Shown in pieces: positions 23,963 through 64,000 of a DNA stretch of 64,000 nucleotides (the stretch's first letter is position 1; each line of letters starts with the position of its first letter). The DNA comes from an uncultured Isosphaeraceae bacterium. Lineage in GTDB: Bacteria; Planctomycetota; GCA-002687715. The notes beneath the pieces were generated by a model. That model was not told where the DNA came from. It saw nothing but the letters and a program-made list of their open reading frames with translations, and searched no databases. The translations under genes were made by a program, and so were the position numbers. The stretch lies in contig CAZDQF010000005.1 of assembly GCA_964507445.1 (NCBI GenBank), positions 38,436-102,435 on the forward strand, in the 5' to 3' direction.

Positions 23963-24020
23963 GGGCGCGGGATTGTAGCCCTGTGGAGCGAGCCCCGATA
24001 GGCTGCCGCTGTGCAGCTTC

Positions 24021-24034: not shown

Positions 24035-26716
24035 ATGGCGGCATACGCCGCGTTGGTGCTCTGGATCGGATGGAGAACCGGACGCGGCCACCAGACCACG
24101 GACGAGCTCTTCCTCGGCGGTCGCCGCATACCCGCGTGGGCCGCGTTCCTGTCCATGGTCGCCACGGAGCTGTCCGCGGCCACCTACATCGCGGTGCCGG
24201 CCGCCGCCTACGGAGGAGACTGGGCGTACCTGCAGTTCGCGTTCGGCGCCCTGGCGGGCAAGGTCGTCCTGGGGGTGTGGTTCATCCGTCGCTACCACGC
24301 CATGGGCCTGGTGACGGTCTACGGGTTCCTCCAGCAGCGGTTCGGGCGCGGCGTGGAGCTGCTGGCGTCCTGGTTCTTCCTGGTCGGTCGCCTGTTCGCC
24401 TCCGGATCACGCCTCTTCATCGGCGCCCTGGCCTTCGCCACGGTCACGGGCCAACCCATGGTGCCTTCGATCCTCATGGCGGGGCTGGTGGCCGGGATCT
24501 ACACCCTGAGCGGCGGCATCAAGGCGGTCATCTGGACCGACACCCTGCAGGGAGCGGTGTTCATCTTCGCCGCCGTGACGGCGCTCGTCGTGGTGCTGGG
24601 AGAGACCGGCGGTCTCGGTGAGGTCTGGACCACGGCGGAATCCGCGGACAAGACTCAGGTGTTCCACTTCCCCGACCTTGGAGGACCCACGGCGGCCGAG
24701 ATCTGGGATGCGTTGCTCGGGAACTACATCACCGGAGCCAGCGCGTTCCTGGTGGCCTTGTTCGGGGGCTTCTTCCTGACCCTGGCGAGCCACGGCACCG
24801 ATCAGGATATGGTCCAGCGCCTGCTGACCACCCGCACGGGCAACAAGGGGGCCATGGCGCTGATCGGCTCGGCCATCACCAACTTCCCGCTGTCCGCCCT
24901 GTTCTTGTTCCTGGGCACATCCCTCTGGGTCTTCTATCGCCCCGACTCTCCCGACCCATGGACCGCTTACGACATCAGCGACTCGGGTCGGATCTTCCCT
25001 GTGTTCGTGCTCCACGAGATCCCCGCCGGTATCCGAGGGTTGATCTTCGCCGGGCTCTTCGCCGCCGCCATGTCCAGCATGGACTCCGCCCTCAACTCCC
25101 TGGCCACCACCTGGGTCGTGAACATCCGACGCAACGCTCAGGTGTCTCCCGAGGAGCGACTGCGGATGACCCGAAGGGCGACCGTCGTGCTCGGACTGCT
25201 CCTCATCGGCGCCGCCCTTGGGTGCGTGGCCTGGGCGCAGGCCATGAAGGCCAGCGGATTCGGGTTGCTGGACGTGGCCCTCGGGAGCATGACCATCCTC
25301 TACGGCGGCCTCCTGGGGGCGTTCCTGGTGGGCATGATGACCGAGCGGGGCAGCCAGGGGAGCGTCATGGCGGGCATGCTCGCCAGCGGCTGCCTCGGGC
25401 TCGTCCTCCTGTTCCAGCCGCTGTACACCGACGGGGCGAAGGTGGTGGTGGCGTGGCCCTGGTGGATCATCATCGGCACCGTCGTCTCCTTCGGCATCGG
25501 CGTCCTCGGGCGCAGCAAGCCGCGGCCTCCCGGGAAGCGGAGCCCACTGTGGTTCTTCCTCTACTGCGGCCTCGTGGTCTTGCTGCTGATGGAGGTAGGG
25601 GTGCGAGTCCTGAGCAAGGAGGCCCACGGTCACCTGCAGGTCGGCGACCTCAAGCTGGTGCCCTTTGCACGGGTCTCGGACGAGCACCGCCAGATCCTGA
25701 ACACGAAGCTGGATCAATTCACCTACAAGATCCCGGACCGGGAGCTGGGGTGGACCATCCGACCCAACGGCCGCAGCCGTGACGGCATGGGCGCCGCCAA
25801 CGCCATGGGCCTGCGCTCGGCGCCGTCTCCGGTCCGTCCCCCGTCCGACTCCGTGAGCCGGGTGCTGCTGCTGGGAGATTCCTACACCCACGGAGATGAG
25901 GTGCCCTGGAACGCCACCTGGGCGGCGCAGCTGCAACGCACCATGGGCGACAGCTACGAGATCCTCAACGGCGGCGTCGGCGGCTACGGCACGGACCAGG
26001 CGATCCTCCGCGGCCGGAGGCTTCGGGAGAAGCTGCGTCCTCAGTGGATCGTCCTCGGTATCCACACGGACGACATGCTCAGGAACGTCACCGTCATGCG
26101 GGCCATCCAGCACCCGTGGACCAACCTCCCCTGGCCCAAGCCCCGTTTCATCCTGGATGCGGACCAGGAGTCCGGCTTGAGGCTGGTCAATCACCCGGTG
26201 GAACCCTGGCCCCCGGAGAAGGTCATCGACGTGCTGGCGAACTACGACGACCACCCCGGGCTACGGGACTGGGATCGCCTGCGGTGGCCTGACCTCTACA
26301 CGGATCGTGCCTGGTACGGATCTCGCCTGCTGCGATGGGTGGCCTCCAGGAAGATCCACCGCGACCGTCACGAGGACCGGCAGGCCCTCATGCGGGACGA
26401 GAACGAGGCGGTGATGGTGACGGCTCTGCTCGCCCGCATGTTCTGTCGCGAGGTGACGGAGTCTGGCGCGCGACCCTTGGTGCTCTTGCTCCCCGCAGAC
26501 GACGAGATCCCCGGGTACGCGGAGGGCAAGAACCCGCGACTGCGGTACCTGCACGCGCAGCTGGAGCGGCTGGAGGTGCCCTTTGTGGATGCGGGGTCCG
26601 CCCTCTTCAAGGAACTCAAGCCTGGCGAAAGCCCCGCAGCCCTCTATCTCATGAGCCACATGAACCGGCGCGGCAACGGCGTCGTCGCGCGCACCCTCGC
26701 CCCCCTCCTCCGGTGA
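24035..26716 (+). CDS. sodium:solute symporter (SSS family) fused to a C-terminal SGNH/GDSL hydrolase domain
   Basis: The N-terminal 520 aa or so has 13 hydrophobic helices and SSS-family architecture. It is followed by an extra helix (WFFLYCGLVVLLLMEV), then GDSL block I LLLGDSYTHGDE, block II NGGVGGYGTDQ and an SHMN-type block V. The alternative start GTG 24011 adds 8 aa. Confidence 0.75.
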   Translation: MAAYAALVLWIGWRTGRGHQTTDELFLGGRRIPAWAAFLSMVATELSAATYIAVPAAAYGGDWAYLQFAFGALAGKVVLGVWFIRRYHAMGLVTVYGFLQQRFGRGVELLASWFFLVGRLFASGSRLFIGALAFATVTGQPMVPSILMAGLVAGIYTLSGGIKAVIWTDTLQGAVFIFAAVTALVVVLGETGGLGEVWTTAESADKTQVFHFPDLGGPTAAEIWDALLGNYITGASAFLVALFGGFFLTLASHGTDQDMVQRLLTTRTGNKGAMALIGSAITNFPLSALFLFLGTSLWVFYRPDSPDPWTAYDISDSGRIFPVFVLHEIPAGIRGLIFAGLFAAAMSSMDSALNSLATTWVVNIRRNAQVSPEERLRMTRRATVVLGLLLIGAALGCVAWAQAMKASGFGLLDVALGSMTILYGGLLGAFLVGMMTERGSQGSVMAGMLASGCLGLVLLFQPLYTDGAKVVVAWPWWIIIGTVVSFGIGVLGRSKPRPPGKRSPLWFFLYCGLVVLLLMEVGVRVLSKEAHGHLQVGDLKLVPFARVSDEHRQILNTKLDQFTYKIPDRELGWTIRPNGRSRDGMGAANAMGLRSAPSPVRPPSDSVSRVLLLGDSYTHGDEVPWNATWAAQLQRTMGDSYEILNGGVGGYGTDQAILRGRRLREKLRPQWIVLGIHTDDMLRNVTVMRAIQHPWTNLPWPKPRFILDADQESGLRLVNHPVEPWPPEKVIDVLANYDDHPGLRDWDRLRWPDLYTDRAWYGSRLLRWVASRKIHRDRHEDRQALMRDENEAVMVTALLARMFCREVTESGARPLVLLLPADDEIPGYAEGKNPRLRYLHAQLERLEVPFVDAGSALFKELKPGESPAALYLMSHMNRRGNGVVARTLAPLLR

Positions 26717-33020: not shown

Positions 33021-33842
33021 ATGAAGCCGCTGTTGATGTCGCTCCTGTTGCTGCTGACCTCCTGTCAAACCGACCAGCGCGGCGACCTGGTGGTGGTCGC
33101 CCATCGCGGGGGCGCCATGGAGGTGCCCGAGAACACCATGGCGGCGTGCCGCTGGGCCATCGCTGAGGGCTTCGAAGCGGTGGAGATCGACGTCCGCCTG
33201 ACCGGAGACGGCCGCGCGGCCATGATCCACGACCGCACCGTGGACCGCACCGCCGGGCGCCCGGCCTCGGCGCCTGTGCGACAACTGGACCTGCAGACAC
33301 TCAACCGCTTCGACGTGGGCGCGCCCTTTGATCGGCGCTTCGAGGGTGAGCGCATCGTTCCCCTCGAGACGGTGCTTCAGCTGCCCTGGGGTGAGCGCAC
33401 CCGGTTGATGATCGAGGTGAAGAGGGAAGGGGACCACAAGGCCACGGAATCTGTACCAGACGATCGAGCCCTGGCAGACGCGGTGGCCCGAGCGATCGGG
33501 CAGGCCCCCAATCGCTCGGGGCTGCTGCTCGGGAGCTTCAGCGCCACCCTCCTCGGAGAACTCCGCACCCGGCTCCCGGATGTCCCCCTGATCGGCATCG
33601 CCAGCACCCGGGAAGACCTGGCCCCGCATCTGAAGCTCCCCCTGACAGCCGTGGCCCTGAACCGAAAGCACGTCACCCGCTCCTTCACCGAAGACATGTC
33701 TCGGCGTGGACTCGGCGTGTGGTGCTGGACCGTGAGAGATCCATCGGAGCTCGCCCCTCTGCTCGAAGCGGACGTGGACGGGGTCATCACCGATATCCCC
33801 ACCATGGTCCGGAAGCTGCTTCGCGGGCAGACGGGGGAGTGA
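33021..33842 (+). CDS. glycerophosphodiester phosphodiesterase family protein, lipoprotein
   Basis: VVAHRGG...PENT...EIDVRLTGDG...IHD are GDPD motifs. Lipoprotein signal MKPLLMSLLLLLTSC. Confidence 0.75.
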   Translation: MKPLLMSLLLLLTSCQTDQRGDLVVVAHRGGAMEVPENTMAACRWAIAEGFEAVEIDVRLTGDGRAAMIHDRTVDRTAGRPASAPVRQLDLQTLNRFDVGAPFDRRFEGERIVPLETVLQLPWGERTRLMIEVKREGDHKATESVPDDRALADAVARAIGQAPNRSGLLLGSFSATLLGELRTRLPDVPLIGIASTREDLAPHLKLPLTAVALNRKHVTRSFTEDMSRRGLGVWCWTVRDPSELAPLLEADVDGVITDIPTMVRKLLRGQTGE

Positions 33843-52502: not shown

Positions 52503-55133
52503 TCACTCGTGGGGGTAGGTCAGCGAGAGGCGCACCCCAAGGGAACGCACCCGTTCCTCGGGCGCGGCGTAATGACGCGCGGCCGAGGTGCAGAAAGGCG
52601 CGGCCAGAGCGAAGGAGCCGCCCCGATGCACCCGCACGGGGCTCTGACCGGACGCTCGCAGGCCGTCCCGCGGACGGACCGAGCAGGTGTATCCGGCCAT
52701 GCCGTCCCGGCACCACTCCGAGACGTTGCCGATGACGTCGTGGAGCCCGAACCCGTTGGGAGCGTAGGACCCGACCACGGCAAGGTCCGCGCGGCCGTCG
52801 TCCAGCCCTGCCGTGGGGATGGAGGTGAGCCTCCTCCCGGAAAAGGACCCCTCATCCAGGATGTTGGCGAACCCCCGCAACGAAGTCACGCTGCTCCCGG
52901 TCGGGAACACGGCCCGTGAACCGCCTCGGGCCGCATGCTCCCACTGCGCCTCCGTCGGCACCTCGAGACCGAGGGCCCGGGCCACCCTCGACACCTCCTC
53001 CCAGGAGACGTATCCCGCCGGGATGTTCTCGGCCAACTCTCCCGCCTCGGACCCGTCACGCTCGCGCGCGAGGAACCTCCGCCACTGGTTCTCCGTCAAC
53101 TCGTACTTGGAGATGAAGAAGGCGGACAGCCGTACCTGGTGGACCGGTCCCACGTCCACCTCCGCGAACCGGTCGACGTTGTGCTCTTCATCCGCTCCCT
53201 CAGCAGGAGGGGACGCCCCCATGTGAAAGCTCGCCGGAGGCAGGAGCACCAGGATGATGCCTCCGGCCAGGCCCGGGCGCCAACGCCTCTGGCCCTCATC
53301 CCACCTCGGGGCGGCGCCGGACTCCACGTGCCAGAAGTTCCAGAGCCCCGAACGCTCGTCCCTGCCCAGCGGCACCAGACCAGGAACGGGCCTCAGCGAG
53401 ACTTCCGTGAACGCCCCACCACGACTCAGGTCTCTCAGGCACCGATCCCACGCCTCACGAGCGTTCAACAAGGAGCGCGTCCGATAGGTCCTGGATCGCC
53501 TCAGGCGATCCGTGACGGAAGCCATGGCGTCATCCAGTTGCACGTACAGATCGATGAGCTCTTCCAGCTGCTCCTCGAAGAACTGGTCCCTCTCGTCCGC
53601 GTAGGACCAGTGCAGGCGGAGGTCCGTCACCAGAGCCAGGCGCTCCCGCTCCTCGCTCCAGGAAGCACGTCGCTCGTCGCTGACGTCACTTGTCCGGAGC
53701 GACGCCTCCAGCTCTTCCATGCGACGAACCTCGTTCGGATAACCGAGTCGCCGCTCGGCAGAAGAGTAGGGCAACGCACGGATCCTGAGGCGTCTCAAGG
53801 ACCGGGCGTGCACGCCCTCGTTTCTCGCCAGGGACCGAGCGTCTCGCAACCACTCCCGACATGAGTCGACCAACCTCGGACCCACGGGCCAGAGCCCCTG
53901 GTGGCTGGCGAGCAGCCGGCGCAGCTTGACCGTGTCCGACAGCTGCAGCACGTCGTCCAGCGCCTGGGTCAACTCTCGCTCGGCCCGTTGTGCCCGGTCC
54001 GCCTCCTGCTGTTCCTGGCGCCAGAAGCTCCACGACACGGTGGCGGCGATGGTGAGCACCGTGAGAATGAGGGCGATCATCCCCACCGCCCACCGGTGCC
54101 GTGTCAGGGTCTTCCTGAGCAGGTACCACCGGCCGTCTCCTCGCGCCTCCACCGCCACCCCCGCGAGCCAGCGGTCCAGGTCACGGCCGAGGGCCTCCGC
54201 GGATTGAAACCTCCGGTCCGGTTCCTTCTGCAACGCACACATGATGATGGCGTCCAGATCCCGGCCTACTTGTGGATTGATCCGGACGACCGGCTCCGGG
54301 TCGGTGTGGGTGATGGCCCTCACCAGCCCTGCGATCGACGCCGCGCCCTGCCACGCGCGCTGGCCCGCGAACGACTCGTACAACAACAAGCCGAGAGCGT
54401 GCACGTCGGTCCGCACGTCCACGAGGGAAGGGTCGTCAGCCAGCTGCTCGGGGGACGCGTAGGGCAGGGTCCCGGCGAACTCTCCGGTCTGGGTCAGCTC
54501 CCGGGAGCGGGTGGCGTGGAACGCCGGCTTGGCGACGCCGAAGTCGAGGATGTGTGGATCTCCGGCTCCATCGATGAGGATGTTCGACGGCTTGAGGTCA
54601 CGGTGAATGACACCACGCTGATGGGCGAAGTGGACGGCGCGACAGAGCTTGCGGAACAGCTCCACCCGGCGCCGCAGGGGTGGCTCTTCATCTTCCATCC
54701 AGACGTCCAGGTGGCGGCCGTCGATGAACTCCATGGCGAGGAACCGCGCCCCCGCGACCTGACCGCTGTCGTAGAGCCGGACGATGTTGGGGTGCTCGAG
54801 CATGCGGATGATCTCGAACTCCAGCTCCATCCGCTTGACCGCCTGGGGAGAAGCGCCCTGCTCCGTGATGATCTTGAGCGCCACGGGGCGCTGGGTGCTC
54901 TGCTGCAGGGCCTTGACCACCAGTCCCTGGCCACCCCGGCGGATCACCTCCTGGAAGACGTAGCCCTCCGGCATGGGAGGCAGTGGCTGCGCCACGGAGT
55001 CCGTGTCCTCGACCGGGAGGTCGTGGCGGTGGTGCTGCAACAGGCCCACCAGGGAGTCGTGGACGTTCATCCCCGCCAGGAACTCCAACTCCCGGTCATC
55101 ACTCTGTTCGCGGCGACGCCACGGCACCCTCAC
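52503..55133 (-). CDS. Ser/Thr protein kinase fused to C-terminal formylglycine-generating-enzyme (FGE/SUMF1) domain
   Basis: Kinase motifs VALKII, HRDLKPSNILID, DFGVAKP and SPEQ. A membrane helix GMIALILTVLTIAATVSW and a long helical region follow. The C-terminal 300 aa carries FGE-sulfatase motifs (YVSWEE...EAQWEHAARGG...GNVSEWCRD...RVHRGGSF). GTG 55133 lies 1 nt after the sigma-factor stop; alternative ATG 55070. Confidence 0.8.
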   Translation of the reverse strand: MRVPWRRREQSDDRELEFLAGMNVHDSLVGLLQHHRHDLPVEDTDSVAQPLPPMPEGYVFQEVIRRGGQGLVVKALQQSTQRPVALKIITEQGASPQAVKRMELEFEIIRMLEHPNIVRLYDSGQVAGARFLAMEFIDGRHLDVWMEDEEPPLRRRVELFRKLCRAVHFAHQRGVIHRDLKPSNILIDGAGDPHILDFGVAKPAFHATRSRELTQTGEFAGTLPYASPEQLADDPSLVDVRTDVHALGLLLYESFAGQRAWQGAASIAGLVRAITHTDPEPVVRINPQVGRDLDAIIMCALQKEPDRRFQSAEALGRDLDRWLAGVAVEARGDGRWYLLRKTLTRHRWAVGMIALILTVLTIAATVSWSFWRQEQQEADRAQRAERELTQALDDVLQLSDTVKLRRLLASHQGLWPVGPRLVDSCREWLRDARSLARNEGVHARSLRRLRIRALPYSSAERRLGYPNEVRRMEELEASLRTSDVSDERRASWSEERERLALVTDLRLHWSYADERDQFFEEQLEELIDLYVQLDDAMASVTDRLRRSRTYRTRSLLNAREAWDRCLRDLSRGGAFTEVSLRPVPGLVPLGRDERSGLWNFWHVESGAAPRWDEGQRRWRPGLAGGIILVLLPPASFHMGASPPAEGADEEHNVDRFAEVDVGPVHQVRLSAFFISKYELTENQWRRFLARERDGSEAGELAENIPAGYVSWEEVSRVARALGLEVPTEAQWEHAARGGSRAVFPTGSSVTSLRGFANILDEGSFSGRRLTSIPTAGLDDGRADLAVVGSYAPNGFGLHDVIGNVSEWCRDGMAGYTCSVRPRDGLRASGQSPVRVHRGGSFALAAPFCTSAARHYAAPEERVRSLGVRLSLTYPHE

Positions 55134-55134
55134 G

Positions 55135-55731
55135 TCAGTCCAGGCTCTCGAACGCTGCCTGCAACTCCGACATGCGACGCAGGACCCGGTACTTCGACAG
55201 ATAGACCGAGCGCCGCGATATCCCCAGCTCCTCCGCCACTTGCGCGGCGGGGAGGCCGTGAAGAGATGTCAGCAGGAAGGCGCGATACGGCGCGTAGGAG
55301 AACTCCATCCGGACCCGCTGCAGGCATCGGGCCAACACCTCCCGATCCCAGGCCTCCTCGAATCGAGCAGCGGCGCTGGGGTCTTCGATGTCGAGGCCAC
55401 GATCCTCGGAGTCGGCGTCGCAAGACACGGTGCGCCGGGCGGCCAGGGTGCCGCGGGAACGGAAGTGATCAACCATCAAGCGGTGGGTGATGGTGAACAA
55501 CCAGGAACGAAGCCCACCCTTGGCTCGCTCGTAGCGCCCCTCCTGATACGCCGAAGCAAATCGCATGAGGGCGGCCTGGGCCAGGTCCTCCGCATCGGCG
55601 TCCTGCATGCCGGACTTGCGGGTGTGGGCCACCAGGATGGGCAGGACGCGGTCAACGAAGCCACCCCACGCTTCGGCATTGCTGAAGTCACGCAGGTCTG
55701 CCAGCAAAGCTGACGTCGTGCTCCACTCCAT
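55135..55731 (-). CDS. ECF-type RNA polymerase sigma factor
   Basis: Internal ATG 55731 (MEWSTTS...). Region 2 (ADAEDLAQAALMRF) and region 4 (LPAAQVAEELGISRRSVYLSKYRVLRRM). Translationally coupled to the downstream kinase-FGE gene. Confidence 0.75.
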   Translation of the reverse strand: MEWSTTSALLADLRDFSNAEAWGGFVDRVLPILVAHTRKSGMQDADAEDLAQAALMRFASAYQEGRYERAKGGLRSWLFTITHRLMVDHFRSRGTLAARRTVSCDADSEDRGLDIEDPSAAARFEEAWDREVLARCLQRVRMEFSYAPYRAFLLTSLHGLPAAQVAEELGISRRSVYLSKYRVLRRMSELQAAFESLD

Positions 55732-56060
55732 GACGCTCTCTTCTCCCGGGGGCGCAAGATCCCCCGCGTCCGTCTTGGACGTCGGCCCAGATCGCAGCGG
55801 GGCACGGAACTCCTGGAGGTACGAAGTCGGGTTCCGGTTTTTGAGAGAAAAAAACCGCGGCGTTGGGGAGAGGCAACGCAAAGGCGACTCCGTTCCGGTC
55901 AGTAACCCTGGTGGGCAGAGGACGGGCCGAAACGGAGTCGCCGTAGCCATCGTGACCCGAGGTCACCGCCGTCGGCCAGCGCGAAATCCCCTAATCTGGC
56001 CGCAGGATTACCGGAAACTCCGTCTATGGAGCCGTTGCACGCCACCCCCATCCGAGCCCC

Positions 56061-57269
56061 TCAAGGCTGGAGAAGTTGGCTCCAGACCCGCTCCACGCGC
56101 CCGAACACCGCCGCCCAGGTGAATCGGCGGAGGTCCAGAGGCTCCGCGTCAGCCTCTCTCAGGGATCTCTGGATGGCCTCCCCCAACCGGACCGAGAAGT
56201 CCCTACGACCCCCCTCGGAGGGCCGGTCGATGCCCGCCATGGCCGGAAGGTTCACGGGGCGCAGGCAATCTCCGAGCCCACTGGCCAGTTCGTTCATGAC
56301 CCCCGGAAGGGCCGTGGCCACCAGCCGGCAACCGCTGGCGGCGGCCTCCACCAAGACCAGCGGCAGGCCTTCGAAGTAGGACGGCAGGACGAACACCCGG
56401 GTCTGGCGCAGCAACCGCGCCAGCTGTTCCTGATCGAGACGGCCGTGCCAGGTCACGTTGGGGAGCGCAGCCATCCGGTCCCGAGCGGACTCCGCTTCCG
56501 GCCCCGCGCCGTCCCCTGCCACGTGGAGCGGGAACCCGTGTCGCTCCGCCGCATCCAGGAGCTCCGGCAGGCCTTTCGCCGCGCTCAACTTGCCGGCGTA
56601 GGCCACCCCATCACGCGCAACACCGTCGCCTCGGTCAAACAGGTCCTCGCGGTAACCAGCCCCCACCACCTGCACGCGCTCCGGGAACAACCCATAGGCC
56701 TCCGTGTAGGCCTCCCGATGCTGACCGTGGAGGGTCAACCAGGCGTCCGCGTCGCGACACGCGCTGGTGACCCGTGCCCGCAGATGGTCGCAGGTGGCCA
56801 GCTGACGGAGCGCCGTGCCGTGGGTGTGGATCACCACGGGGACGGAGGCGGCCACCTCCCGGACGACGCCCGCGACGACCCAGCCATGATGAGCGTGAAT
56901 CACCTGGGGCCTCACGCGCTGCACCACCGCCTTGAGGTGCCGACGCCAGGCCCCTCCGTAGACCTCGAGCTGCTCCTCGTCCATCTCGGACCAGACGGTG
57001 CTGACGTAGGGCATCACGTCCGACATGCCGGGGACCGGAAACGGCACCGCGGCCTCGCTCTCCGCAGGGGTGGTCGCGAAGGTGAGGGGGTGCACGCGGT
57101 CAGGGTCCAGCCCTCCGACCTCCGGTCTCGGATCTGAAGCCGGGACTCCGCAGACAACGTGCTGGTCCCAGCCGCAGCGCGTCGCCTCCCGCACCAACGC
57201 GTCGAGGGTGACGCCGCTGCCGGTGAGGAAAGGTCGCTGAGACAGCACATGCAGCACGCGGCCGCTCAT
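56061..57269 (-). CDS. glycosyltransferase family 4 (GT-B fold)
   Basis: IHAHHGW in the N-terminal domain and E-x7-E-type GLPLVLVEAAASG in the C-terminal domain. Confidence 0.7.
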   Translation of the reverse strand: MSGRVLHVLSQRPFLTGSGVTLDALVREATRCGWDQHVVCGVPASDPRPEVGGLDPDRVHPLTFATTPAESEAAVPFPVPGMSDVMPYVSTVWSEMDEEQLEVYGGAWRRHLKAVVQRVRPQVIHAHHGWVVAGVVREVAASVPVVIHTHGTALRQLATCDHLRARVTSACRDADAWLTLHGQHREAYTEAYGLFPERVQVVGAGYREDLFDRGDGVARDGVAYAGKLSAAKGLPELLDAAERHGFPLHVAGDGAGPEAESARDRMAALPNVTWHGRLDQEQLARLLRQTRVFVLPSYFEGLPLVLVEAAASGCRLVATALPGVMNELASGLGDCLRPVNLPAMAGIDRPSEGGRRDFSVRLGEAIQRSLREADAEPLDLRRFTWAAVFGRVERVWSQLLQP

Positions 57270-57297
57270 GGCCTCCTCCTCGGTGAGCCCCGGATCA

Positions 57298-59733
57298 TCA
57301 ACACCGGACCCGAGCGCTCTTGGGGTCGTAGGCAGGCCGCAAGGAGGCCCGGGCAGACACGGGATGACCGTTCACGACCACGTCGTAACGACCGGCCACG
57401 AGCCAGTCCTTGGTGACCCGCTCCGGACCCCGGACGTAGCCGAGCCCCACGGCGCCTCCCAACGTGTGACCGTAGGCGCCCGACGTCGTGTGACCCACCA
57501 CCGCTCCGTCGCGGAGGATCGGTTCCTGACCCCACAAGACCGGCTCCGGGTCTTCCAGGACGAGCTGGACGAGCCGACGGGTGACCCCGGACTCCCGCTG
57601 CCGCACCACCACCTCCCGGCCCAGGAAGTCCTTGGACAGGTCACAGAACATGGAGAGCCCGGCCTGGACAGGGGTATCGTCGGGGCTGAGCTCCGCGCCC
57701 CACGCCCGGTAGGCCTTCTCGAGCCTGCAGGCGTTCACCGCGTAGTGACCCGCGTCCCGGAGCCCCAGGTCTTCCCCTGCCTCATGCAGCGCCGTGTGCA
57801 CGCGCACCATGTCCGACGGGTCCACATGGACCTCGTAGCCCAGCTCCCCCACGTAGGTGATGCGCAGCGCGCTCACCGTGGCCCCGGCCAGCTGGAAGCG
57901 CTGCGCCGTGCCGAAGGGGAAGCTCTCGTTGCCGAGGTCGTGATCCGTCAGCCGGCTCATCAACGCCCTCGTGTGGGGGCCCATGATCCCGATGACGCCC
58001 ACCGCCTGCGTCACGTCCTCCACCTCCACACCCATACCCCGGGCGTTGGCTCGGACCCACGCCAGGTCGTGCCAGCGTTGGCCGCTGGAGGTCACCAGGA
58101 TGAAGCAATCCGGGAGACGCAACACCGTCAGGTCACTCTCGAAGGTCCCCCGCTGGTTGAGCATGGCCGTGTACACCAGCTTGCCGGGGTCCACGTCCAC
58201 GTTGTTGGCGCACAGGCGCTGCAGGAGGTCGCGGCTCTCCGGGCCCGACACCCGGATCTTGCCGAAGGAGGACTGGTCGAACAGAGCCACCCCCTCGCGA
58301 ACAGCCCGGACCTCCTCCGCCACCGCGCCATGCCAGTTCTGACGGCCCCAGGCGTACTCGTTCACAGGGTCCTCGCCAGGTCGAGCGAACCAGTTGGGCC
58401 GCTCCCAGCCCGCCCGCTGACCGAAGCACGCGCCTCGCGCCGCCAGGGAGTCGTGCAACGGTGACTCGAGCAGCCCCCGCCCGGTCTCCATCTCCCGGTT
58501 GGGCCAGGCCATCTGGTAGTGGAGCCCGAGCACCTCGCCGACCCGCGATTGAAGAAAGGACGGGTCGTTGTGCATCGCGCCGAAGCGGGTCGGGTCCACG
58601 CTCCACAGATCCATGGTCGCGGAGCCTTCCGTCATCCACTCAGCGAGCACGCGGCCGGCGCCTCCGGCGGTGGCGATGCCGACGCTGTTGAAGCCGGCGG
58701 CGATCCAGAGACCGTCAACGCCGGGTCCGGGACCCAGGATGAAGCTGTTGTCGGGGGTGAAGCTCTCGGGTCCGTTGATGAAGTCCGGGAACTCCGCGTC
58801 ACGCAGGGCGGGGATGAGCTTGCGGCCAGCGGCCAGGGGGTCGGCGAATCCCGGCCAGTCGGGTTCGAAGAGACCGAAGCTGAAGTCCCCGGGCACCGGG
58901 TCCACATCCCAGGGCTTGCTGCGGTCCTGGAACGCCCCCAGCATCATGCGATCCCCTTCCGGGCGCACGTAGATCTTGAGGTCCGGGTCCCGGAGCATGG
59001 GCAGGTCATCGTGGGTGCCGGCGATGGGCTCGCTCACCACGTAATGGTGCTCCACGGGCCAGAGCGGCACGGTCAATCCGCACCGGGCCGCCAGGTCCCG
59101 TGTCCACATCCCTCCACACAGGGCCACGTGTTCGGCGGAGACATCACCTTGATCGGTTCGCACGCCGACCACCCTGTCACCTTCCCGCAACACCTCCGTG
59201 ACGCGGACACCCTCCTGAAGAACGGCGCCTCGTGAGCGCGCCCCTGCGGCGAGAGACGCCACCAGGTCCTGGGGCACCACGCGGCCGTCGTGAGGCAGCC
59301 ACGCGCCACCGAGCACCTGCGCCGCGTCCATGTGAGGCCAGAGCTCGGCGCAGCGGTCCCGGTCGATGATCTCGGCCTCCACTCCGAAGACCTCGGCCAT
59401 GGCGACGGTGCGGCGCAGCTGCACCATGCGCTCCTCGCTGCGGCCGACGATCAGGCTGCCGGTCTGACGCCACGAGCAGGAGACCCCGGTCTCGGCTTCG
59501 AGCCGGGAGTACAGCTCCACGCTCTCCTTGTTGATCCTGGTCAGGGAATTGGAGGTCCGCAACCGACCCACCATGCCCGCCGCGTGCCAGGTGGAGCCGC
59601 CGGCCAGCTCTCCCTGCTCGAGCAGCAGGACCTCGTCGTGTCCGTGACGGACCAGGTGGTAGGCGAGGCTCGTCCCCATGGCACCGCCCCCCACGATCAC
59701 GATCCGGGAAGCTGCGGGGAGCGCCTGGGCCAT
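57298..59733 (-). CDS. FAD-dependent oxidoreductase fused to aminomethyltransferase (GcvT) folate-binding domain; dimethylglycine/sarcosine dehydrogenase family
   Basis: IVIVGGGAMGTSLAYHL FAD motif and a DAO domain of about 420 aa, then a GcvT-like domain (GHTTSGAYGHTLGGAVGLGYV). 811 aa. Confidence 0.75.
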   Translation of the reverse strand: MAQALPAASRIVIVGGGAMGTSLAYHLVRHGHDEVLLLEQGELAGGSTWHAAGMVGRLRTSNSLTRINKESVELYSRLEAETGVSCSWRQTGSLIVGRSEERMVQLRRTVAMAEVFGVEAEIIDRDRCAELWPHMDAAQVLGGAWLPHDGRVVPQDLVASLAAGARSRGAVLQEGVRVTEVLREGDRVVGVRTDQGDVSAEHVALCGGMWTRDLAARCGLTVPLWPVEHHYVVSEPIAGTHDDLPMLRDPDLKIYVRPEGDRMMLGAFQDRSKPWDVDPVPGDFSFGLFEPDWPGFADPLAAGRKLIPALRDAEFPDFINGPESFTPDNSFILGPGPGVDGLWIAAGFNSVGIATAGGAGRVLAEWMTEGSATMDLWSVDPTRFGAMHNDPSFLQSRVGEVLGLHYQMAWPNREMETGRGLLESPLHDSLAARGACFGQRAGWERPNWFARPGEDPVNEYAWGRQNWHGAVAEEVRAVREGVALFDQSSFGKIRVSGPESRDLLQRLCANNVDVDPGKLVYTAMLNQRGTFESDLTVLRLPDCFILVTSSGQRWHDLAWVRANARGMGVEVEDVTQAVGVIGIMGPHTRALMSRLTDHDLGNESFPFGTAQRFQLAGATVSALRITYVGELGYEVHVDPSDMVRVHTALHEAGEDLGLRDAGHYAVNACRLEKAYRAWGAELSPDDTPVQAGLSMFCDLSKDFLGREVVVRQRESGVTRRLVQLVLEDPEPVLWGQEPILRDGAVVGHTTSGAYGHTLGGAVGLGYVRGPERVTKDWLVAGRYDVVVNGHPVSARASLRPAYDPKSARVRC

Positions 59734-60840
59734 TCAACGAATCTCCATGTCTGACAACGTCCTGCCCACGGCGTCCAACAAGGCGCGCACGTCATCCGGA
59801 GAGAGGTGCCCGATGGTCCCGATGCGGAAGCACCGAGCCTGCGTCAGCTTGCCGGGGTAGATCACGAACCCCCGTTCGTTGAGCCGCTCGTAGAACCCCT
59901 CGAACGTGAAACTCGGATCGTCCGGGTAGTGAAAGGCGGTGATGATCGGGCCCTGGACCTGCTCTGATAGGTAGGGGGTGAAGCCCAGCTCCTTCATGCC
60001 GCGGACGAGCAGTCGGTGGTTCTCCGCGTAGCGACGTCCGCGGGCCACGGGCCCTCCCTCCGCCTCCAGCTCCCGCAGGGCTTGCCGGAACGCCAGCAGG
60101 GCGTGGGTGGGAGGGGTGAAGCGGAACTGCCCATTGTCCTCCAGGCCACGCCACTGAGCGAGGAGGTCCAGGCTGACGGTGCGGGCGCGACCCGCGCTGG
60201 CGAGCAGAGCGTCGCGCCGACAGATGACGAAGCAGAACCCCGGCACGCCCTGGATGCACTTGTTGGCGCTGGAGACGAGGTAATCCACGCCCCAGTCGTC
60301 GAGGTCCACCTCCACGGCGCCGAAGGCGCTCATGGAATCGACGATGAAGACCTTGTCGTGTCCGGCCACGAGCCGTCCCATGGAGCTCACCGGGTTCATG
60401 ATCCCGGTGGTGGTCTCGCAATGAACCGTGGCCACCGCCGCGATCCCCGGGTCCTCGGTCAGCGAGCGCTCGAGCGCGCCCAGGTCCGGCGTCTCGTCCT
60501 CCGGGCAACGCAGCTCAAGGGTCTCGACGCCGTGCACCCGGGCGATGGCCGCCATGCGATCCCCGTACGCCCCGTTGATGACCACCAGCAACTTGCCCTG
60601 CGGCGGCAGGACCGAAGACACCACCGCCTCCAGGCCGGAGGTGCCGCTACCTTGCATGGGGATGGCCTCGTATCCAGCCTCCTGGGAGGTGGACGCGAGC
60701 TTGAGGAGGTCACGTCGGATCTCACCCACCGCGTCGATGAACGACCGGTCCCGCGAACCGAGGTCGTGCAACATCGCTTCCTTGACGCCGGGACTGGTGG
60801 TGAGAGGGCCAGGAGTGAAGAGTGGTTTGTCCTGCGACAC
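59734..60840 (-). CDS. phnW: 2-aminoethylphosphonate--pyruvate transaminase
   Basis: LFTPGPLTTSPGVKEAML, SSANKCIQGVPGF, FVIYPGK and CFRIGTIG align closely with Salmonella PhnW. GTG 60840 with a GGAG motif 9 nt upstream. The ORF track over-extends to 61509. Confidence 0.8.
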   Translation of the reverse strand: MSQDKPLFTPGPLTTSPGVKEAMLHDLGSRDRSFIDAVGEIRRDLLKLASTSQEAGYEAIPMQGSGTSGLEAVVSSVLPPQGKLLVVINGAYGDRMAAIARVHGVETLELRCPEDETPDLGALERSLTEDPGIAAVATVHCETTTGIMNPVSSMGRLVAGHDKVFIVDSMSAFGAVEVDLDDWGVDYLVSSANKCIQGVPGFCFVICRRDALLASAGRARTVSLDLLAQWRGLEDNGQFRFTPPTHALLAFRQALRELEAEGGPVARGRRYAENHRLLVRGMKELGFTPYLSEQVQGPIITAFHYPDDPSFTFEGFYERLNERGFVIYPGKLTQARCFRIGTIGHLSPDDVRALLDAVGRTLSDMEIR

Positions 60841-60891
60841 GGGGTCGGACTCCGTGGGAAGGCTATCGGATCCCGTGGACAGCAGCAACGG

Positions 60892-60903
60892 TAGGATGCC
60901 GCC
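60892..60903 (+). promoter_or_regulatory. -10-like TAGGAT lying 6 nt upstream of the HAD-hydrolase ATG
   Basis: TAGGAT at 60892-60897, then GCCGCC, then ATG 60904. Confidence 0.3.
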
Positions 60904-61650
60904 ATGCCGAGCGGAATCACCCTGGACCTGTGGGACACCGTCATTCATGACGACTCGGACGAACCGAAGCGCTCGAGACAGGGGCTGCGATGCAAGGCGG
61001 ACGCCCGGATCGACATCGTCGAGCGCGCCGTTGCCACGGCGGACGCGGGGGTCTTGAGAGAGGATGTGGTGCGTGCATCCCAACTGGCAGCGGAGACGTT
61101 TCGTTCCACCTGGCGTGACCAGCACGTCACCCTCGGGGTGCCGGAGCGGATGGGGTTGATCCTGAGCGCCCTGCGAGTCGAGTTGATCCCGGAGGTCCGC
61201 ACGCGCGCCATCACCGAGCTGGAGGAGCTGGAGTTGGACCCGCCCCCCGATCCGGTGCCGGGGGCGGTCGAAGGGGTCGCTACCCTCGCATCCAGGTGGC
61301 CCCTGGCCATCGTCTCCGACACCGTGTTCTCCCCGGCCCGCTGCCTGCGGGAGATCCTCCGGCTCCACGGCCTCCTGGATCACTTCAACGCCCTGGTGTT
61401 CAGCGACGAAGCGGGCTGTTCCAAGCCGGATCGACGAGTGTTCGAACGCGCCGTGAGCGAGCTGGGCGTGGACAGGGAGAAGACGGTCCACGTGGGTGAC
61501 CGTGAACACAACGACGTGAAGGGCGCCCGGCGGGCCGGAATGAAGACCGTGCTGTTCATCGGCACCCGGGACACGGACCTTGCCGGCACCACCGCTGACG
61601 CCGTTTGCAGGAGCTGGGATGAGCTCCCGGATATCATCAGCGCCCTATGA
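60904..61650 (+). CDS. HAD-superfamily hydrolase (subfamily IA-like)
   Basis: N-terminal LDLWDTVIHDD (HAD motif I variant), then SDT..., K..., GDREHNDV motif IV. A PhnX-like phosphonatase role is possible but not demonstrated. Confidence 0.6.
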   Translation: MPSGITLDLWDTVIHDDSDEPKRSRQGLRCKADARIDIVERAVATADAGVLREDVVRASQLAAETFRSTWRDQHVTLGVPERMGLILSALRVELIPEVRTRAITELEELELDPPPDPVPGAVEGVATLASRWPLAIVSDTVFSPARCLREILRLHGLLDHFNALVFSDEAGCSKPDRRVFERAVSELGVDREKTVHVGDREHNDVKGARRAGMKTVLFIGTRDTDLAGTTADAVCRSWDELPDIISAL

Positions 61651-63656
61651 GATTCCTCGTCATCGACGGATACACCAAGGCGGCCCGAGACGAGCTGGAA
61701 GCCGGAGGCGCGTCGACCGCGGCGACCCTCTATGAACGCATGCTCCTGCGCTGGGCCCCGGAGGGATCCTCCGTGGACCTGCTGTTCCCGTCGGATACTG
61801 GCATCGCGGACGACTTCGCGGTGGACCGATACGACGGCATCGCCTGGACCGGATGCAGTCTCTGCGTCAACGACACGGACAAGCCCGAGGTGACCTGTCA
61901 GGTGGACCTGCAGCGCCGAGCATACCTGGCAGGAGTCCCCGGGTTCGGCTCATGCTGGGCGGCCCAGGTCGCGGTCGTGGCGGCGGGAGGAGCGGTGGCT
62001 CCGAACCCCAACGGCCGGGAGATGGGCGTGGCGCGGAAGATCGCGTTGACCGGCGAAGGGCGGGCGCACCCCATGTTCGAAGGCAAGCCCCACGTGTTCG
62101 ACGGCTTCACCAGCCACGACGACGAGGTGACCCGGCTGCCGGAAGGTGCGACCCTCCTCGCGTCCAATCCATGGACCCGCGTCCAGGCGGTGGAGGTGGT
62201 CTACGAAGGGACGCCCTTCTGGGGACTGCAGTACCACCCGGAGTACGACCTCCACGAGATGGCTCGGCTCATGCACACCCGCGCGGACAAGTTGGTGGCC
62301 CTCGGGTTCTTCAAGGACCGGGACGCGGCTCAACGCCACGTCGACGACCTGGAGACCGTACACGCCGACCCGTCGCGAACGGACCTCGCCTGGTCGCTCG
62401 GCATCGACGCGGACCTCCTCGACCCGGAGATCCGACAGGCGGAGACACGGAACTGGATCCGGTCCCTCCTGGTGCTCCTGTTGATGACCGGCCTCGTCGC
62501 CGCGCAGCGGACCAACTACGACGAGTCCAAGGTCCCCGCCTACACGCTCCCCGACCCGCTCGAAGGTGTCGCCACGCCGGCGGAGTGGACGGAGCGCCGG
62601 GCCCACCTGATGAAGCTCTTGGAAGGCCACGTCTACGGGCGCATGCCAAGAGCGCCCGTGCGCACGTTCGTCAAGGAGACCGAGCCCGACCCCAAGGCGC
62701 TCGACGGGCTGGCGACGCGGCGTGAGATCACCATCCGGTTCAAGGACGAGGGGTCCGGTCCGGCCATGACCGTGCTCCTCTACCAGCCGAACAAGCGCGA
62801 GGGGCCGGCCCCGGCGTTCCTGGGCCTGAACTTCTGGGGCAACCACGCGGTCGACGAGGACCCGGGGATCACCATCAACCCCGCCACCCGCGGTCGGGCC
62901 CGCGGCTCCCGGGCCCACCGATGGGCCATCCCCACCATCATCGACCGCGGCTACGCCCTGGCCACCATCTACTACGGTGACATCGACCCGGACCGCTTCG
63001 ACGGCTACAAGGACGGGGTCCACCCCCTCTTCCCCATGAACCAGGGCTCCGCCAGGGAGAAGGACGCGTGGGGCTCCATCTGCGCGTGGGCCTGGGGGCT
63101 CTCCCGCGCCCTGGACTGGATGGTGCAGGATGAGGCCATCGACGGCGGCAAGGTGGCGGTCATGGGGCACTCCAGGCTCGGCAAGACCGCCCTGTGGGCA
63201 GGCGCCTGCGACGAGCGCTTCAAGCTGGTCATCTCCAACAACTCGGGGTGCGGCGGCGCGGCGCTGTCCCGCCGTCGATACGGAGAGACCGTCAAGCGCA
63301 TCAATGACGTCATGCCCCACTGGTTCTGCGACCGGTTCAAGGAGTACAACGGCAACGAGGACGCGCTCCCCGTGGATCAGCACACCCTGATCGCGTGCAT
63401 CGCTCCCAGGGCGTGCCTCGTGAGCAGCGCCGAGGAGGATCGCTGGGCCGATCCTAAGGGCGAGTTCCTCGCCGCCCGCGGCGCGGACCCGGTCTATCGG
63501 TTGCTCGGCACGTCCGGGCTCCCGGTCAGCTCCATGCCGACGCCGGGCAATGCCTCTCTCGGACGATTGGGATACCACATACGACCGGGCAAGCACGACG
63601 TGACCGACGCGGACTGGGACGTCTTCCTCCGCTTCGCCGATCGCTTCCTCCGTTGA
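61647..63656 (+). CDS. class I glutamine amidotransferase-like domain fused via a hydrophobic segment to a CE15-like (glucuronoyl esterase-type) alpha/beta hydrolase
   Basis: The N-terminal 270 aa has GFGSCWAAQ (Cys nucleophile context) and GLQYHPE (His). A hydrophobic stretch IRSLLVLLLMTGLVAAQ spans nt 62457-62510. The C-terminal 385 aa has a GHSRLGK nucleophile motif (compare CE15 GCSRxG) and a downstream His. The 5' end overlaps the HAD gene stop (ATGA). Confidence 0.6.
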   Translation: MRFLVIDGYTKAARDELEAGGASTAATLYERMLLRWAPEGSSVDLLFPSDTGIADDFAVDRYDGIAWTGCSLCVNDTDKPEVTCQVDLQRRAYLAGVPGFGSCWAAQVAVVAAGGAVAPNPNGREMGVARKIALTGEGRAHPMFEGKPHVFDGFTSHDDEVTRLPEGATLLASNPWTRVQAVEVVYEGTPFWGLQYHPEYDLHEMARLMHTRADKLVALGFFKDRDAAQRHVDDLETVHADPSRTDLAWSLGIDADLLDPEIRQAETRNWIRSLLVLLLMTGLVAAQRTNYDESKVPAYTLPDPLEGVATPAEWTERRAHLMKLLEGHVYGRMPRAPVRTFVKETEPDPKALDGLATRREITIRFKDEGSGPAMTVLLYQPNKREGPAPAFLGLNFWGNHAVDEDPGITINPATRGRARGSRAHRWAIPTIIDRGYALATIYYGDIDPDRFDGYKDGVHPLFPMNQGSAREKDAWGSICAWAWGLSRALDWMVQDEAIDGGKVAVMGHSRLGKTALWAGACDERFKLVISNNSGCGGAALSRRRYGETVKRINDVMPHWFCDRFKEYNGNEDALPVDQHTLIACIAPRACLVSSAEEDRWADPKGEFLAARGADPVYRLLGTSGLPVSSMPTPGNASLGRLGYHIRPGKHDVTDADWDVFLRFADRFLR

Positions 63657-63738
63657 TCGATGCCCCCTCGAGCTCCGGGGATCTTCCCGACACAGGGCCA
63701 CGGGATTAACCTAACGACGCTCCGCTACCAGCCGAGAT

Positions 63739-64000
63739 GTGCCGTTGGCAGTTAAAATCACCAATCCGTACGACGGGTCCGAAGTCTGCGCCCTGACGCA
63801 CACGGAGGACGATGCCCTGGATCGCGTGGTCGCGTTCGCCCACGCGGCTCAGGAGGCATGGGCCCGGGTCCCGCTCCCAGAACGGGTGGACCGGGTGCGG
63901 GCTGCCATGGGCTATTTCCGAGACCACGGCGACGAGGTGGCGAGGGATGTCTCCCTGCAGATGGGCAAGCCCATCTCGCAGGCCCTGGGAGAGGTCGAGA
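63739..64000 (+). CDS. aldehyde dehydrogenase family protein, N-terminal fragment (possible phosphonoacetaldehyde dehydrogenase)
   Basis: GTG 63739. ITNPYDGSEV...ALDRVVAFAHAAQEAW matches the NAD-dependent ALDH N-terminal pattern. The gene runs off the window. Confidence 0.5.
   Translation, partial: MPLAVKITNPYDGSEVCALTHTEDDALDRVVAFAHAAQEAWARVPLPERVDRVRAAMGYFRDHGDEVARDVSLQMGKPISQALGEVE

Follow-up and report, generated by a model that had tools for sequence, protein, structure and literature searches.

A conserved association between phnW, the gene for 2-aminoethylphosphonate (AEP):pyruvate transaminase, and the gene of an 811 amino acid (aa) long flavoenzyme resembling dimethylglycine dehydrogenase (DMGDH) was found in a 64,000-nucleotide stretch of DNA, called here the window, from an uncultured Isosphaeraceae bacterium of the Planctomycetota (contig CAZDQF010000005.1, positions 38,436 to 102,435). 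The association is real and conserved, and it is apparently undescribed. The 811-aa protein falls in a clade of DMGDH-like enzymes that is distinct and widespread. Judged by the homology and gene context on which all functional statements made here are based, its role is probably to remove N-methyl groups from methylated AEP, as an enzyme not yet described. The broader reading favored here, for which we would put the chances at about even, is that the clade as a whole would demethylate N-methylated AEPs and would be functionally coupled to PhnW.

Phosphonolipids and glycans of marine invertebrates and protists commonly carry N-methylated AEPs as head groups, and these compounds are not substrates of PhnW. 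The combination of a flavin amine dehydrogenase with a GcvT domain oxidizes N-methyl groups and traps the one-carbon unit on tetrahydrofolate (THF), as in DMGDH, sarcosine dehydrogenase (SARDH), dimethylglycine oxidase (DMGO) and MabO. To our knowledge, the sole enzymatic solution for N-methyl-AEP is that of PbfB, PbfC and PbfD, in which methylamine is discarded. In the searchable literature, including a 2023 review and a paper on AEP transporters, no GcvT-fused or folate-dependent enzyme of phosphonate catabolism was found and the name "PbfE" is unused, a description in unpublished or subscription-only work being possible. If the favored reading is true, demethylation coupled to folate would be a second solution, by a different mechanism, with the methyl carbon kept as methylene-THF and AEP passed to the standard pathway. 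The turnover of methylated phosphonates would then extend to Planctomycetota, Verrucomicrobiota and rhizobia, and thousands of proteins named "FAD-dependent oxidoreductase" could be better annotated.

The phnW and oxidoreductase genes

The two genes at the center of this work are as follows.

57298-59733, minus strand: DAO/GcvT oxidoreductase, 811 aa, a DMGDH-like flavoenzyme
59734-60840, minus strand: phnW, 368 aa, 2-aminoethylphosphonate:pyruvate transaminase, GTG start

No spacer separates them; the stop codon of phnW abuts the ATG of the oxidoreductase gene, and the GTG start of phnW is preceded by GGAG about 10 nt upstream. An earlier note on this DNA, made from the sequence alone, had placed phnW head-to-tail with the FAD/GcvT gene at these same positions and had called phnW with high confidence, and both statements were confirmed. 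PhnW of the window is a true PhnW. It exceeds the cut-offs of three NCBIfam equivalogs (NF010006, 479.6 against 296; TIGR02326, 457.5 against 400.8; TIGR03301, 447 against 360.8), and its full-length alignment to Salmonella PhnW (1M32) reaches 379 bits. The 1M32 motifs "SSANKCIQG", "IVDSMSAFG" and "CFRIGTIG" are kept, and these contain the Schiff-base lysine, the cofactor aspartate and the C-terminal, phosphonate-binding arginine, with residue roles as reportedly assigned by Chen et al. 2002. A biosynthetic role for phnW was rejected, as PepM and Ppd are absent from the window and from the related loci L001 and L007; the context of phnW is catabolic, with no pepM or ppd and with relatives that adjoin PbfA, PhnX and PhnY. 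A second class-V aminotransferase in the window (8002-9243) is not PhnW-like.

The oxidoreductase has four Pfam domains, all at full length, namely DAO (246 bits), FAO_M (61), GCV_T (252) and GCV_T_C (74). Its best matches in the PDB are rat and human DMGDH (about 515 bits, E about 1e-153), and Arthrobacter DMGO scores 412 bits. The covalent-FAD (flavinylation) histidine is conserved as His50 in "STWHAAG", aligned to rat DMGDH. The motifs "VEHHY" and "IYVRPE" also align with the rat enzyme and resemble those of the catalytic His/Tyr dyad. The folate-domain motif "YVGELGYE" is likewise conserved. For DMGDH-type enzymes in general, the assignment of the dyad follows PMC5082570.

The oxidoreductase reaches no NCBIfam family cut-off. 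The earlier note had named as the outcome that would refute its hypothesis a grouping of the protein with bona fide betaine-pathway enzymes and constant company of betaine genes. At 35% identity to rat DMGDH and about 42% (41.5%) to a MabO-like plasmid protein, the oxidoreductase did not group with the characterized enzymes, and its closer relatives accompany phosphonate genes and not always betaine genes. When active sites were compared through the family-specific conserved columns of the alignment, Arg108 proved invariant in 60 of 60 family members, with tyrosine in its place in both rat DMGDH and the MabO-like protein, and this arginine is a candidate phosph(on)ate ligand. The sequence "GQLR(T/S)S", which follows the flavinylation site, is also specific to the family. 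Several metagenomes contain the 811-aa protein in unaltered form, on at least 24 contigs in all, with identical gene order in the six of those loci shown. In a rough neighbor-joining tree, phosphonate contexts were spread over the entire family of 44-60% identity, the kinase-linked loci described below formed one clade, and the MabO-like protein and the L144/L146 pair were outermost.

Gene neighborhoods across phyla

Pattern-based scans gave at least 63 oxidoreductase loci and at least 80 PhnW loci. For the former, one genome per species was taken and all flanking open reading frames (ORFs) were clustered; the relatives are 47-60% identical to the window protein and come nearly all from Planctomycetota and Verrucomicrobiota. 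PhnW is the most recurrent genuine neighbor of the oxidoreductase among the 63 genome loci. Where a locus is counted as informative if at least 5 kb is present on each side of the relative, PhnW lies within 10 kb in 7 of 28 and some phosph(on)ate marker in 13 of 28. The chance expectation is about 0.1 in 28 by our own estimate, which supposes a genome of about 5 Mb with a single phnW, and PhnW adjacency is far commoner than that. Relatives of 44-60% identity lie among aminophosphonate genes or beside them, and at least seven distinct arrangements of this kind were seen in several phyla. The recurrence across phyla, like the domain architecture, the identity of PhnW and the zero-spacer coupling, was computed directly.

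Among these arrangements, L007 (Planctomycetota) mirrors the window, with a sodium:solute symporter (SSF), a short-chain dehydrogenase/reductase (SDR), an aldehyde dehydrogenase (ALDH), a GATase-CE15 fusion and a HAD hydrolase set opposite PhnW and the oxidoreductase. L052 (Verrucomicrobiia) carries the oxidoreductase, an SDR-GATase1-HAD-ALDH group, PbfA (662 against a cut-off of 525), a second class-III aminotransferase, PhnW and a PhnY that scores 592 bits in an ORF cut by the end of the locus. In Opitutales loci and in L013 and L054 of the Planctomycetota, PhnW adjoins the oxidoreductase and a DUF5690 gene follows; the Opitutales PhnW is divergent from the oxidoreductase and often accompanied by a HisJ-like PHP phosphatase. 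After DUF5690 these clusters continue with a GbcA-like Rieske oxygenase and a single-domain DAO protein, and they end with a convergent block of GATase1, iron-dependent alcohol dehydrogenase (Fe-ADH), glutamine synthetase (GS)-like ligase and ALDH. L013 also encodes (17958-20351, minus strand) a 797-aa fusion of a D-2-hydroxyacid dehydrogenase, of the PbfF racemase family, with a PbfA equivalog (619 against 525), which by its sequence would be a one-protein converter of S-1-hydroxy-2-aminoethylphosphonate (S-HAEP) to phosphonoacetaldehyde. Dehydrogenases of 2-hydroxyethylphosphonate (HEP), namely PbfG and those of the PhpC type, were described by the group that reported PbfB, PbfC and PbfD (PMC13576164). 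A role of the Fe-ADH of the related loci as a PhpC-type HEP dehydrogenase found no support, with 169 bits on TIGR03405 against a cut-off of 424; it scores 350 bits on a 4-hydroxybutyrate dehydrogenase model.

Seen from the side of PhnW, in a sample of 80 metagenomic relatives of 47-62% identity, the partners were PhnX in 34 loci, PbfA in 21, an OPA-type MFS transporter directly upstream in 13, the oxidoreductase in 6, a directly adjacent DUF5690 in 5 and PepM/Ppd in 5. This is the comparison of phnW neighborhoods that the earlier note had proposed, and it places the oxidoreductase with PhnW in two arrangements. In L119, L120 and L123 (55-56% identity), the oxidoreductase stands opposite PhnW-PbfA. 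In L144, L146 and L147 (44-45% identity, soil metagenome), a LysR regulator is divergent from PhnW-PhnX-oxidoreductase-TmpA-HD-domain phosphonate oxygenase, where the regulator passes the AEP-catabolism LysR cut-off (345 against 341), PhnX is identified by TIGR01422 and TmpA is an equivalog of 2-trimethylaminoethylphosphonate dioxygenase (427 against 400). These three loci are the clearest case of the oxidoreductase in a phosphonate operon.

A marine contig, L155, joins an oxidoreductase of 49% identity to uptake and hydrolysis genes, in the order DeoR, Na/phosphate (Pi) cotransporter, HAD, GATase1, PhnS2 (521 against 393), ATPase, PhnU2 (814 against 593), PhnX (288 against 220), class-III aminotransferase, oxidoreductase and ALDH. 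The best matches on plasmids (48.5-50% identity) are "FAD-dependent oxidoreductases" of megaplasmids in Ensifer, Sinorhizobium, Shinella, Phyllobacterium and Aminobacter. Ensifer canadensis and "Roseateles" XES5 have phnW-phnA-phnY-phnS2-T2-U2, a GlxA-family regulator, DeoR and the oxidoreductase, and p_2 of S. meliloti RCAM1750 (L163, 1415-18742) has DeoR, oxidoreductase, LysR, Na/Pi cotransporter, phnW and phnA. The orthologues beside phnWAY on Sinorhizobium and Ensifer megaplasmids, that of Ensifer canadensis being WP_057225814.1, belong to cultured, genetically tractable hosts. Among plasmid relatives of 40-44% identity, DeoR and an APH/choline-kinase-like kinase accompany the oxidoreductase in Shinella and Alisedimentitalea; the clade with kinase, DeoR and DAO/GcvT comprises Alphaproteobacteria and the 6-Mb metagenome-assembled genome (MAG) L071. 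A relative of 41.5% identity lies in a purU-X-folD arrangement on an Arthrobacter plasmid from tobacco root, and this protein, called MabO-like here, may be MabO itself, given the gene order of pAO1.

Transporters near the relatives are those tied to PhnW or PhnX elsewhere: OPA-type MFS, DUF5690 (as in PbfA-PhnW-DUF5690-PhnX of L118) and PhnS2T2U2. The DUF5690 membrane proteins, of which examples lie at L118:11120-12556, L104:8697-9953, L154:4597-5892 and L018:12433-13746, are candidate aminophosphonate transporters on the basis of this company, and no literature on the family was found. Other Verrucomicrobiota have an OPA-type MFS transporter, a Rieske oxygenase, a single-domain DAO protein and the oxidoreductase with no PhnW nearby. 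In L008, L009 and L019 (about 7300-13600), these form an operon of OPA-type MFS, GbcA-like Rieske, single-domain DAO and DAO/GcvT that resembles a chain of three steps for demethylating a trimethylammonium organophosph(on)ate, and an APH/choline-kinase-like kinase lies near it in L008 and L019.

The divergent module and the remainder of the window

On the other side of a short intergenic region, a second group of genes runs away from phnW, and a glycosyltransferase gene lies beyond the oxidoreductase.

56061-57269, minus strand: GT4 glycosyltransferase (Pfam), 28 nt downstream of the 811-aa gene
60841-60903, no strand: 63 bp of intergenic DNA between the divergently transcribed phnW and HAD genes
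60904-61650, plus strand: HAD-IA hydrolase, REG-2-like (Pfam/NCBIfam), divergent, 63 bp from the phnW start
61647-63656, plus strand: GATase1-CE15 glucuronyl-esterase fusion, 669 aa
61647-62450, plus strand: class-I glutamine-amidotransferase-like domain, with Cys in "GSCWAAQ" and with "HPE"
62451-62507, plus strand: signal-peptide-like hydrophobic linker "NWIRSLLVLLLMTGLVAAQ", joining GATase1 to the esterase domain
62508-63656, plus strand: CE15 glucuronyl-esterase-like domain (PF22244, 113.6 bits)
63739-64000, plus strand: aldehyde dehydrogenase N-terminus, running off the window; 453-455 aa in identical contigs

The divergent HAD, GATase-esterase fusion and aldehyde dehydrogenase reported in the earlier note are all present where it had put them, and the last 4 nt of the HAD gene overlap the gene of the fusion. 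Past the window end, the identical metagenome contigs continue with the ALDH and an SDR in the opposite orientation, followed by genes for an SSF symporter, an NTP_transf_3 protein and pyruvate phosphate dikinase. HAD and GATase1 are always adjacent, with GATase1 as the second gene of the pair, and usually overlap, and with SDR and ALDH they form an orthologous four-gene module at ten loci of Planctomycetota and Verrucomicrobiota (the window, L007, L052, L070, L071, L072 and L153-L156), with identities across loci of 69-81% for SDR, 56-69% for GATase1, 41-64% for ALDH and 40-49% for HAD. Six of the ten have phosphonate markers, seven have a demethylase and two have neither; the recurrent neighbors are PhnW, PbfA, PhnY, PhnX, AEP transporters or N-demethylating enzymes. 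HAD-GATase1-ALDH(-SDR-SSF) is a conserved module separate from phnW-oxidoreductase. In the window it occupies the place of the expected phosphonoacetaldehyde-consuming step (PhnX/PhnA), and it may process phosphonoacetaldehyde or a companion head-group compound. The module and DUF5690 would be additional parts of aminophosphonate metabolism.

The earlier note had suggested that the HAD could be PhnX-like and the ALDH PhnY-like, and neither suggestion was upheld. The HAD has no match at E<=1e-3 to the NCBIfam PhnX family (TIGR01422), on which true PhnX proteins score 288-334 bits; no phosphonatase is among its 60 best PDB matches listed, and it coexists with a real PhnX in L155. In its motif I, "FDLWDT", the Asp that is usual at Asp+2 is replaced by Trp. 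Among orthologues W10, D11 and T12 are invariant, D8 is nearly so, and S138, K174, D199 and D204 are conserved; the "D-x-x-D-T" form of motif I resembles that of REG-2-like HADs and is not a special phosphonatase signature. As to PhnY, the 25 best families listed for the full-length ALDH do not include TIGR03250, on which an orthologue scores 194 bits against a cut-off of 635.65, and a real PhnY coexists in L052. The window ALDH resembles succinate-semialdehyde and aminobutyraldehyde dehydrogenases. The SDR was rejected as a PbfF racemase, as PbfF, the HAEP racemase, is a PF02826 enzyme (PMC12366243) and not an SDR.

In the fusion, a GATase1 of cytoplasmic type is joined to CE15 by what was formerly a signal peptide. 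The in-frame junction, which runs from "NWIRSLLVLLLMTGLVAAQ" into "RTNYDESKVPAYTLPDPL", is the same in L007 (4166-6232), and because the fusion is conserved in two diverged genomes, GATase1-CE15 is probably a real membrane-anchored, two-sided protein. Other GATase1 homologues are nearly all standalone, at about 286 aa, and CE15 is absent from the GATase1 orthologues at other loci; the CE15 fusion is confined to the window lineage and L007 and is probably unrelated to phosphonate genes. The NTP_transf_3 protein ("Sden_1164 family", L001:1106-1930, minus strand) lies about 7 kb past the window end, where it adjoins the SSF symporter. It has weak similarity to LicC (CTP:phosphocholine cytidylyltransferase), and a role as PntC-type phosphonate cytidylyltransferase found no support, the similarity being to LicC/MurU alone and weak.

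In tblastn searches of the window and 10 kb beyond it with verified queries, no PhnX, PhnA, PhnY, PhnZ-like protein, TmpA, PepM, Ppd, PbfA, PhnS2/U2, PhnC or PhnD was found, and the sole match was a generic one to ALDH. The absence of phnA and phnCDE remarked on in the earlier note is in keeping with the null results for PhnA, PhnC and PhnD. No known C-P-cleaving gene is present in the window. The G+C content is uniform at 66-70% across the region, with no compositional break. The phnW/HAD intergenic region, aligned to L007 and L154, is patchily conserved (in part with L007), and a consensus scan of 55900-64000 found no sigma-70-type promoter and no intrinsic terminator. The GT4 glycosyltransferase gene is possibly co-transcribed with the 811-aa gene. 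Neither L007 nor any of the other related loci has it beside the oxidoreductase, and it is probably outside the PhnW/oxidoreductase system.

Elsewhere in the window, a 2679-aa ORF (10902-18941, plus strand) joins an N-terminal FAD-binding domain to acyl-CoA dehydrogenase middle/C-terminal domains and an ETF-alpha FAD-binding domain, which makes it an unusual fusion of redox domains and a giant one. A PhoD-like phosphatase (18935-20728, minus strand) and a glycerophosphodiester phosphodiesterase (about 33021-33842, plus strand) point to the scavenging of organic phosphorus by the source organism. An SSF symporter is fused to a GDSL lipase domain (24011-26716, plus strand), and a Ser/Thr protein kinase is fused to an FGE-sulfatase (formylglycine-generating-enzyme-like) domain (52503-55133, minus strand) directly downstream of an ECF-type sigma factor (55135-55950, minus strand), with a sulfatase gene nearby.

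Proposed pathway, rival explanations and known systems

In the proposed pathway, N-methyl-AEP, and probably N,N-dimethyl-AEP, would be taken up, with the SSF symporter of the divergent operon as a candidate importer. The N-methyl C-N bond would be oxidized by the flavin domain, the one-carbon unit would pass through the internal cavity to THF to give 5,10-methylene-THF, and AEP, now a primary amine, would be released. The translationally coupled PhnW would then use pyruvate to convert AEP to phosphonoacetaldehyde and alanine. Oxidation on the methyl side yields AEP and hence needs PhnW or another AEP transaminase, which would explain why the oxidoreductase keeps company with PhnW; since AEP becomes a substrate of PhnW only after demethylation, translational coupling of the two would also make sense. 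The TmpA equivalog in the same operon as a relative would tie the family specifically to N-methylated AEP, and the DeoR-family regulators near relatives are of a kind that typically senses phosphorylated ligands. The identities of substrate and product, the role of THF and the electron acceptor are what we infer; as the covalent-FAD histidine is present, the acceptor would be ETF-like. Of the hypothesis of N-methyl-AEP catabolism put forward in the earlier note, the link between demethylase and PhnW gained support from neighborhoods in several phyla (phnWX, phnWAY, PbfA and TmpA clusters), and the part that gave the HAD and ALDH the roles of PhnX and PhnY fell away.

A more ambitious reading, which is tentative and on balance somewhat unlikely, takes two propositions jointly. 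In the first, the GbcA-like Rieske oxygenase, the single-domain DAO protein and the clade would carry out the full stepwise demethylation of "phosphonocholine", from trimethyl- to dimethyl- to monomethyl-AEP and then AEP, in parallel with glycine-betaine catabolism, and the kinase-linked relatives would do likewise on phosphate-ester head groups. In the second, HAD-GATase1-SDR-ALDH would be an undescribed route for phosphonoacetaldehyde or aminophosphonates, possibly with a new way of breaking or bypassing the C-P bond.

The substrate of the oxidoreductase could instead be a head group of the phospho- or amino-alcohol type that carries N-methyl groups, for example phospho-N-methylethanolamine, N-methylethanolamine, dimethylethanolamine or a derivative of choline. 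The enzyme would then work with the HAD-GATase1-SDR-ALDH module, which would take alcohol to aldehyde to acid, dephosphorylate and hydrolyze amides, and PhnW would be a neighbor handling AEP from the same lipid or glycan head-group pool. This explanation, which we regard as unlikely, would account for the travels of the module with demethylases in the absence of PhnW, as in L070 (with Rieske and single-domain DAO) and L071 (with OpuAC, kinase, DAO/GcvT, ALDH and Fe-ADH). It also fits the pairing of a whole clade with an APH/choline-kinase-like kinase (L160, L162, L071 and L156), with DeoR alongside the kinase in L160 and L162 and at the head of the L071 locus. OPA-family transporters move organophosphates, and the Opitutales-type set of GS-like ligase, GATase1, Fe-ADH and ALDH is a gene set for gamma-glutamylation of amines and amino alcohols. 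The context of the kinase-linked clade suggests that its members act on a phosphorylated N-methyl amino alcohol. However, gene order couples the enzyme to PhnW/PhnX in three operons (the window, L144/L146 and L155), the phn-linked orthologues of Ensifer and Sinorhizobium are accompanied by neither kinase nor module, in L154 the module is accompanied by PhnW and PbfA while the oxidoreductase is absent, and the window has no kinase or GS-like gene of the kind seen around some relatives. Quite unlikely, in turn, is an ordinary dimethylglycine/sarcosine dehydrogenase, fed either by choline or glycine betaine or by methylated AEP after oxidative C-P cleavage of the TmpA/TmpB or PhnY*/PhnZ type. The closest structures (rat and human DMGDH), with the covalent-FAD histidine and the dyad-like motifs kept, are what such an enzyme would have. 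Relatives adjoin a GbcA-like Rieske oxygenase (415 bits) and a single-domain, sarcosine-oxidase-like DAO protein, and the L146 gene directly precedes TmpA and the HD oxygenase; the product of TmpAB from trimethyl-AEP is reportedly glycine betaine (Rajakovich et al. 2019). Identity to rat DMGDH is nevertheless just 35%, with no NCBIfam cut-off reached, and the clusters of the window, L007, L155 and Ensifer hold the hydrolytic AEP route or PhnW alone, which counts against this explanation because the hydrolytic route makes no sarcosine or dimethylglycine. Among the genes annotated in the window and 10 kb beyond, there is no betaine transporter, GbcA, BHMT, sarcosine oxidase or other choline/glycine-betaine catabolic gene, and GbcA-like and BADH-like neighbors of relatives fall well under their equivalog cut-offs (415 against 670 and 297 against 669).

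It is very unlikely that the oxidoreductase acts on another 2-aminoethyl compound, such as N-methyltaurine, or that its adjacency to phnW is functionally meaningless. N-methyltaurine comes into consideration as an alternative substrate in rhizobia because the DeoR-oxidoreductase pair of S. meliloti lies between taurine and AEP clusters, directly after tauABC...xsc-pta, and about half of the informative relatives have no phosphonate neighbor. The pair in Ensifer canadensis, by contrast, is beside phn genes with no tau genes within 10 kb, the phosphonate link is kept in at least seven arrangements in several phyla, and the zero-spacer coupling to phnW is maintained in 24 metagenome contigs of this lineage.

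Several points weigh against N-methylated AEP as the substrate of the clade, the reading favored here. The locus sets are phylogenetically non-independent, and the taxonomic labels of MAG contigs among them are doubtful; the tree was built from distances and not bootstrapped. No phosphonate gene lies within 10 kb in 15 of the 28 informative loci, mostly freshwater Verrucomicrobiota of about 50% identity. DeoR and the kinase accompany DAO/GcvT in L160 (6025-10385) and L162 (7030-11309), and the kinase and an OpuAC-type transporter in L071 (1-7570), all without PhnW. Other relatives are beside the GbcA-like Rieske oxygenase and single-domain DAO, and both the kinase- and the Rieske-linked contexts would also fit substrates of the betaine, choline or phosphoethanolamine type. 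In S. meliloti RCAM1750, the DeoR-oxidoreductase pair is placed between the taurine and the AEP cluster, and the enzyme of the L146-type operon could have as its substrate dimethylglycine or sarcosine made by oxidative C-P cleavage of the TmpA/HD type. The window itself has no PhnX, PhnA or PhnY, and the pathway is not closed from this sequence.

Among known systems, mitochondrial DMGDH and SARDH and Arthrobacter DMGO share with the oxidoreductase the four-domain architecture, the covalent 8-alpha-histidyl-FAD site and the His/Tyr-like motifs, and they perform THF-coupled N-demethylation with channelling of the one-carbon unit. The window protein differs from DMGDH in its low identity (35%), in Arg108 for Tyr and in a phosphonate rather than betaine/choline gene context. 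MabO, the gamma-N-methylaminobutyrate demethylating oxidase of the nicotine plasmid pAO1, is also a DAO-GcvT protein and removes an N-methyl group from an omega-amino acid, and the logic of its pathway is that proposed here, with a primary amine product passed to a transaminase or dehydrogenase; its substrate, however, carries a carboxylate and its neighbors (purU, folD) recycle folate and are not phosphonate genes. The Rieske-DAO-DAO/GcvT trio of the verrucomicrobial and Opitutales loci resembles the glycine betaine chain (GbcAB Rieske, dimethylglycine demethylase and sarcosine oxidase), from which it is set apart by an OPA-type transporter or DUF5690, often by PhnW, and by a Rieske protein under the GbcA cut-off (415 against 670). 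Of this trio, the window has the DAO/GcvT member alone. TmpA and TmpB (a 2-oxoglutarate dioxygenase and an HD-domain oxygenase) likewise belong to a pathway for N-methylated AEP, and a TmpA equivalog is directly downstream of the relative in L146, but they cleave the C-P bond without removal of the methyl group, and neither is in the window.

The nearest comparison is with PbfB, PbfC and PbfD, recurrent single-domain PF01266 enzymes of AEP clusters. PbfC and PbfD convert N-methyl-AEP oxidatively into phosphonoacetaldehyde and methylamine, and there is evidence of the same activity in PbfB; formaldehyde was tested for and not found, and some of these enzymes can replace PhnW (Zangelmi et al. 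2023, PMC10590968). Like the oxidoreductase, they are PF01266 flavoenzymes of AEP clusters that bring N-methyl-AEP into the hydrolytic pathway, and their setting in phnWX or phnWYA clusters is that of the relatives in L144/L146, L155 and Ensifer, whereas the window has phnW alone. They also differ in size, as PbfC, PbfD1 and PbfD2 are single-domain proteins of 43.3-45.6 kDa (PMC10590968) and the window protein has 811 aa with a GcvT domain. Whereas PbfB, PbfC and PbfD oxidize the C-N bond on the ethyl side and bypass PhnW, the window enzyme is predicted to oxidize that on the methyl side and to depend on PhnW, with AEP and methylene-THF as its products.

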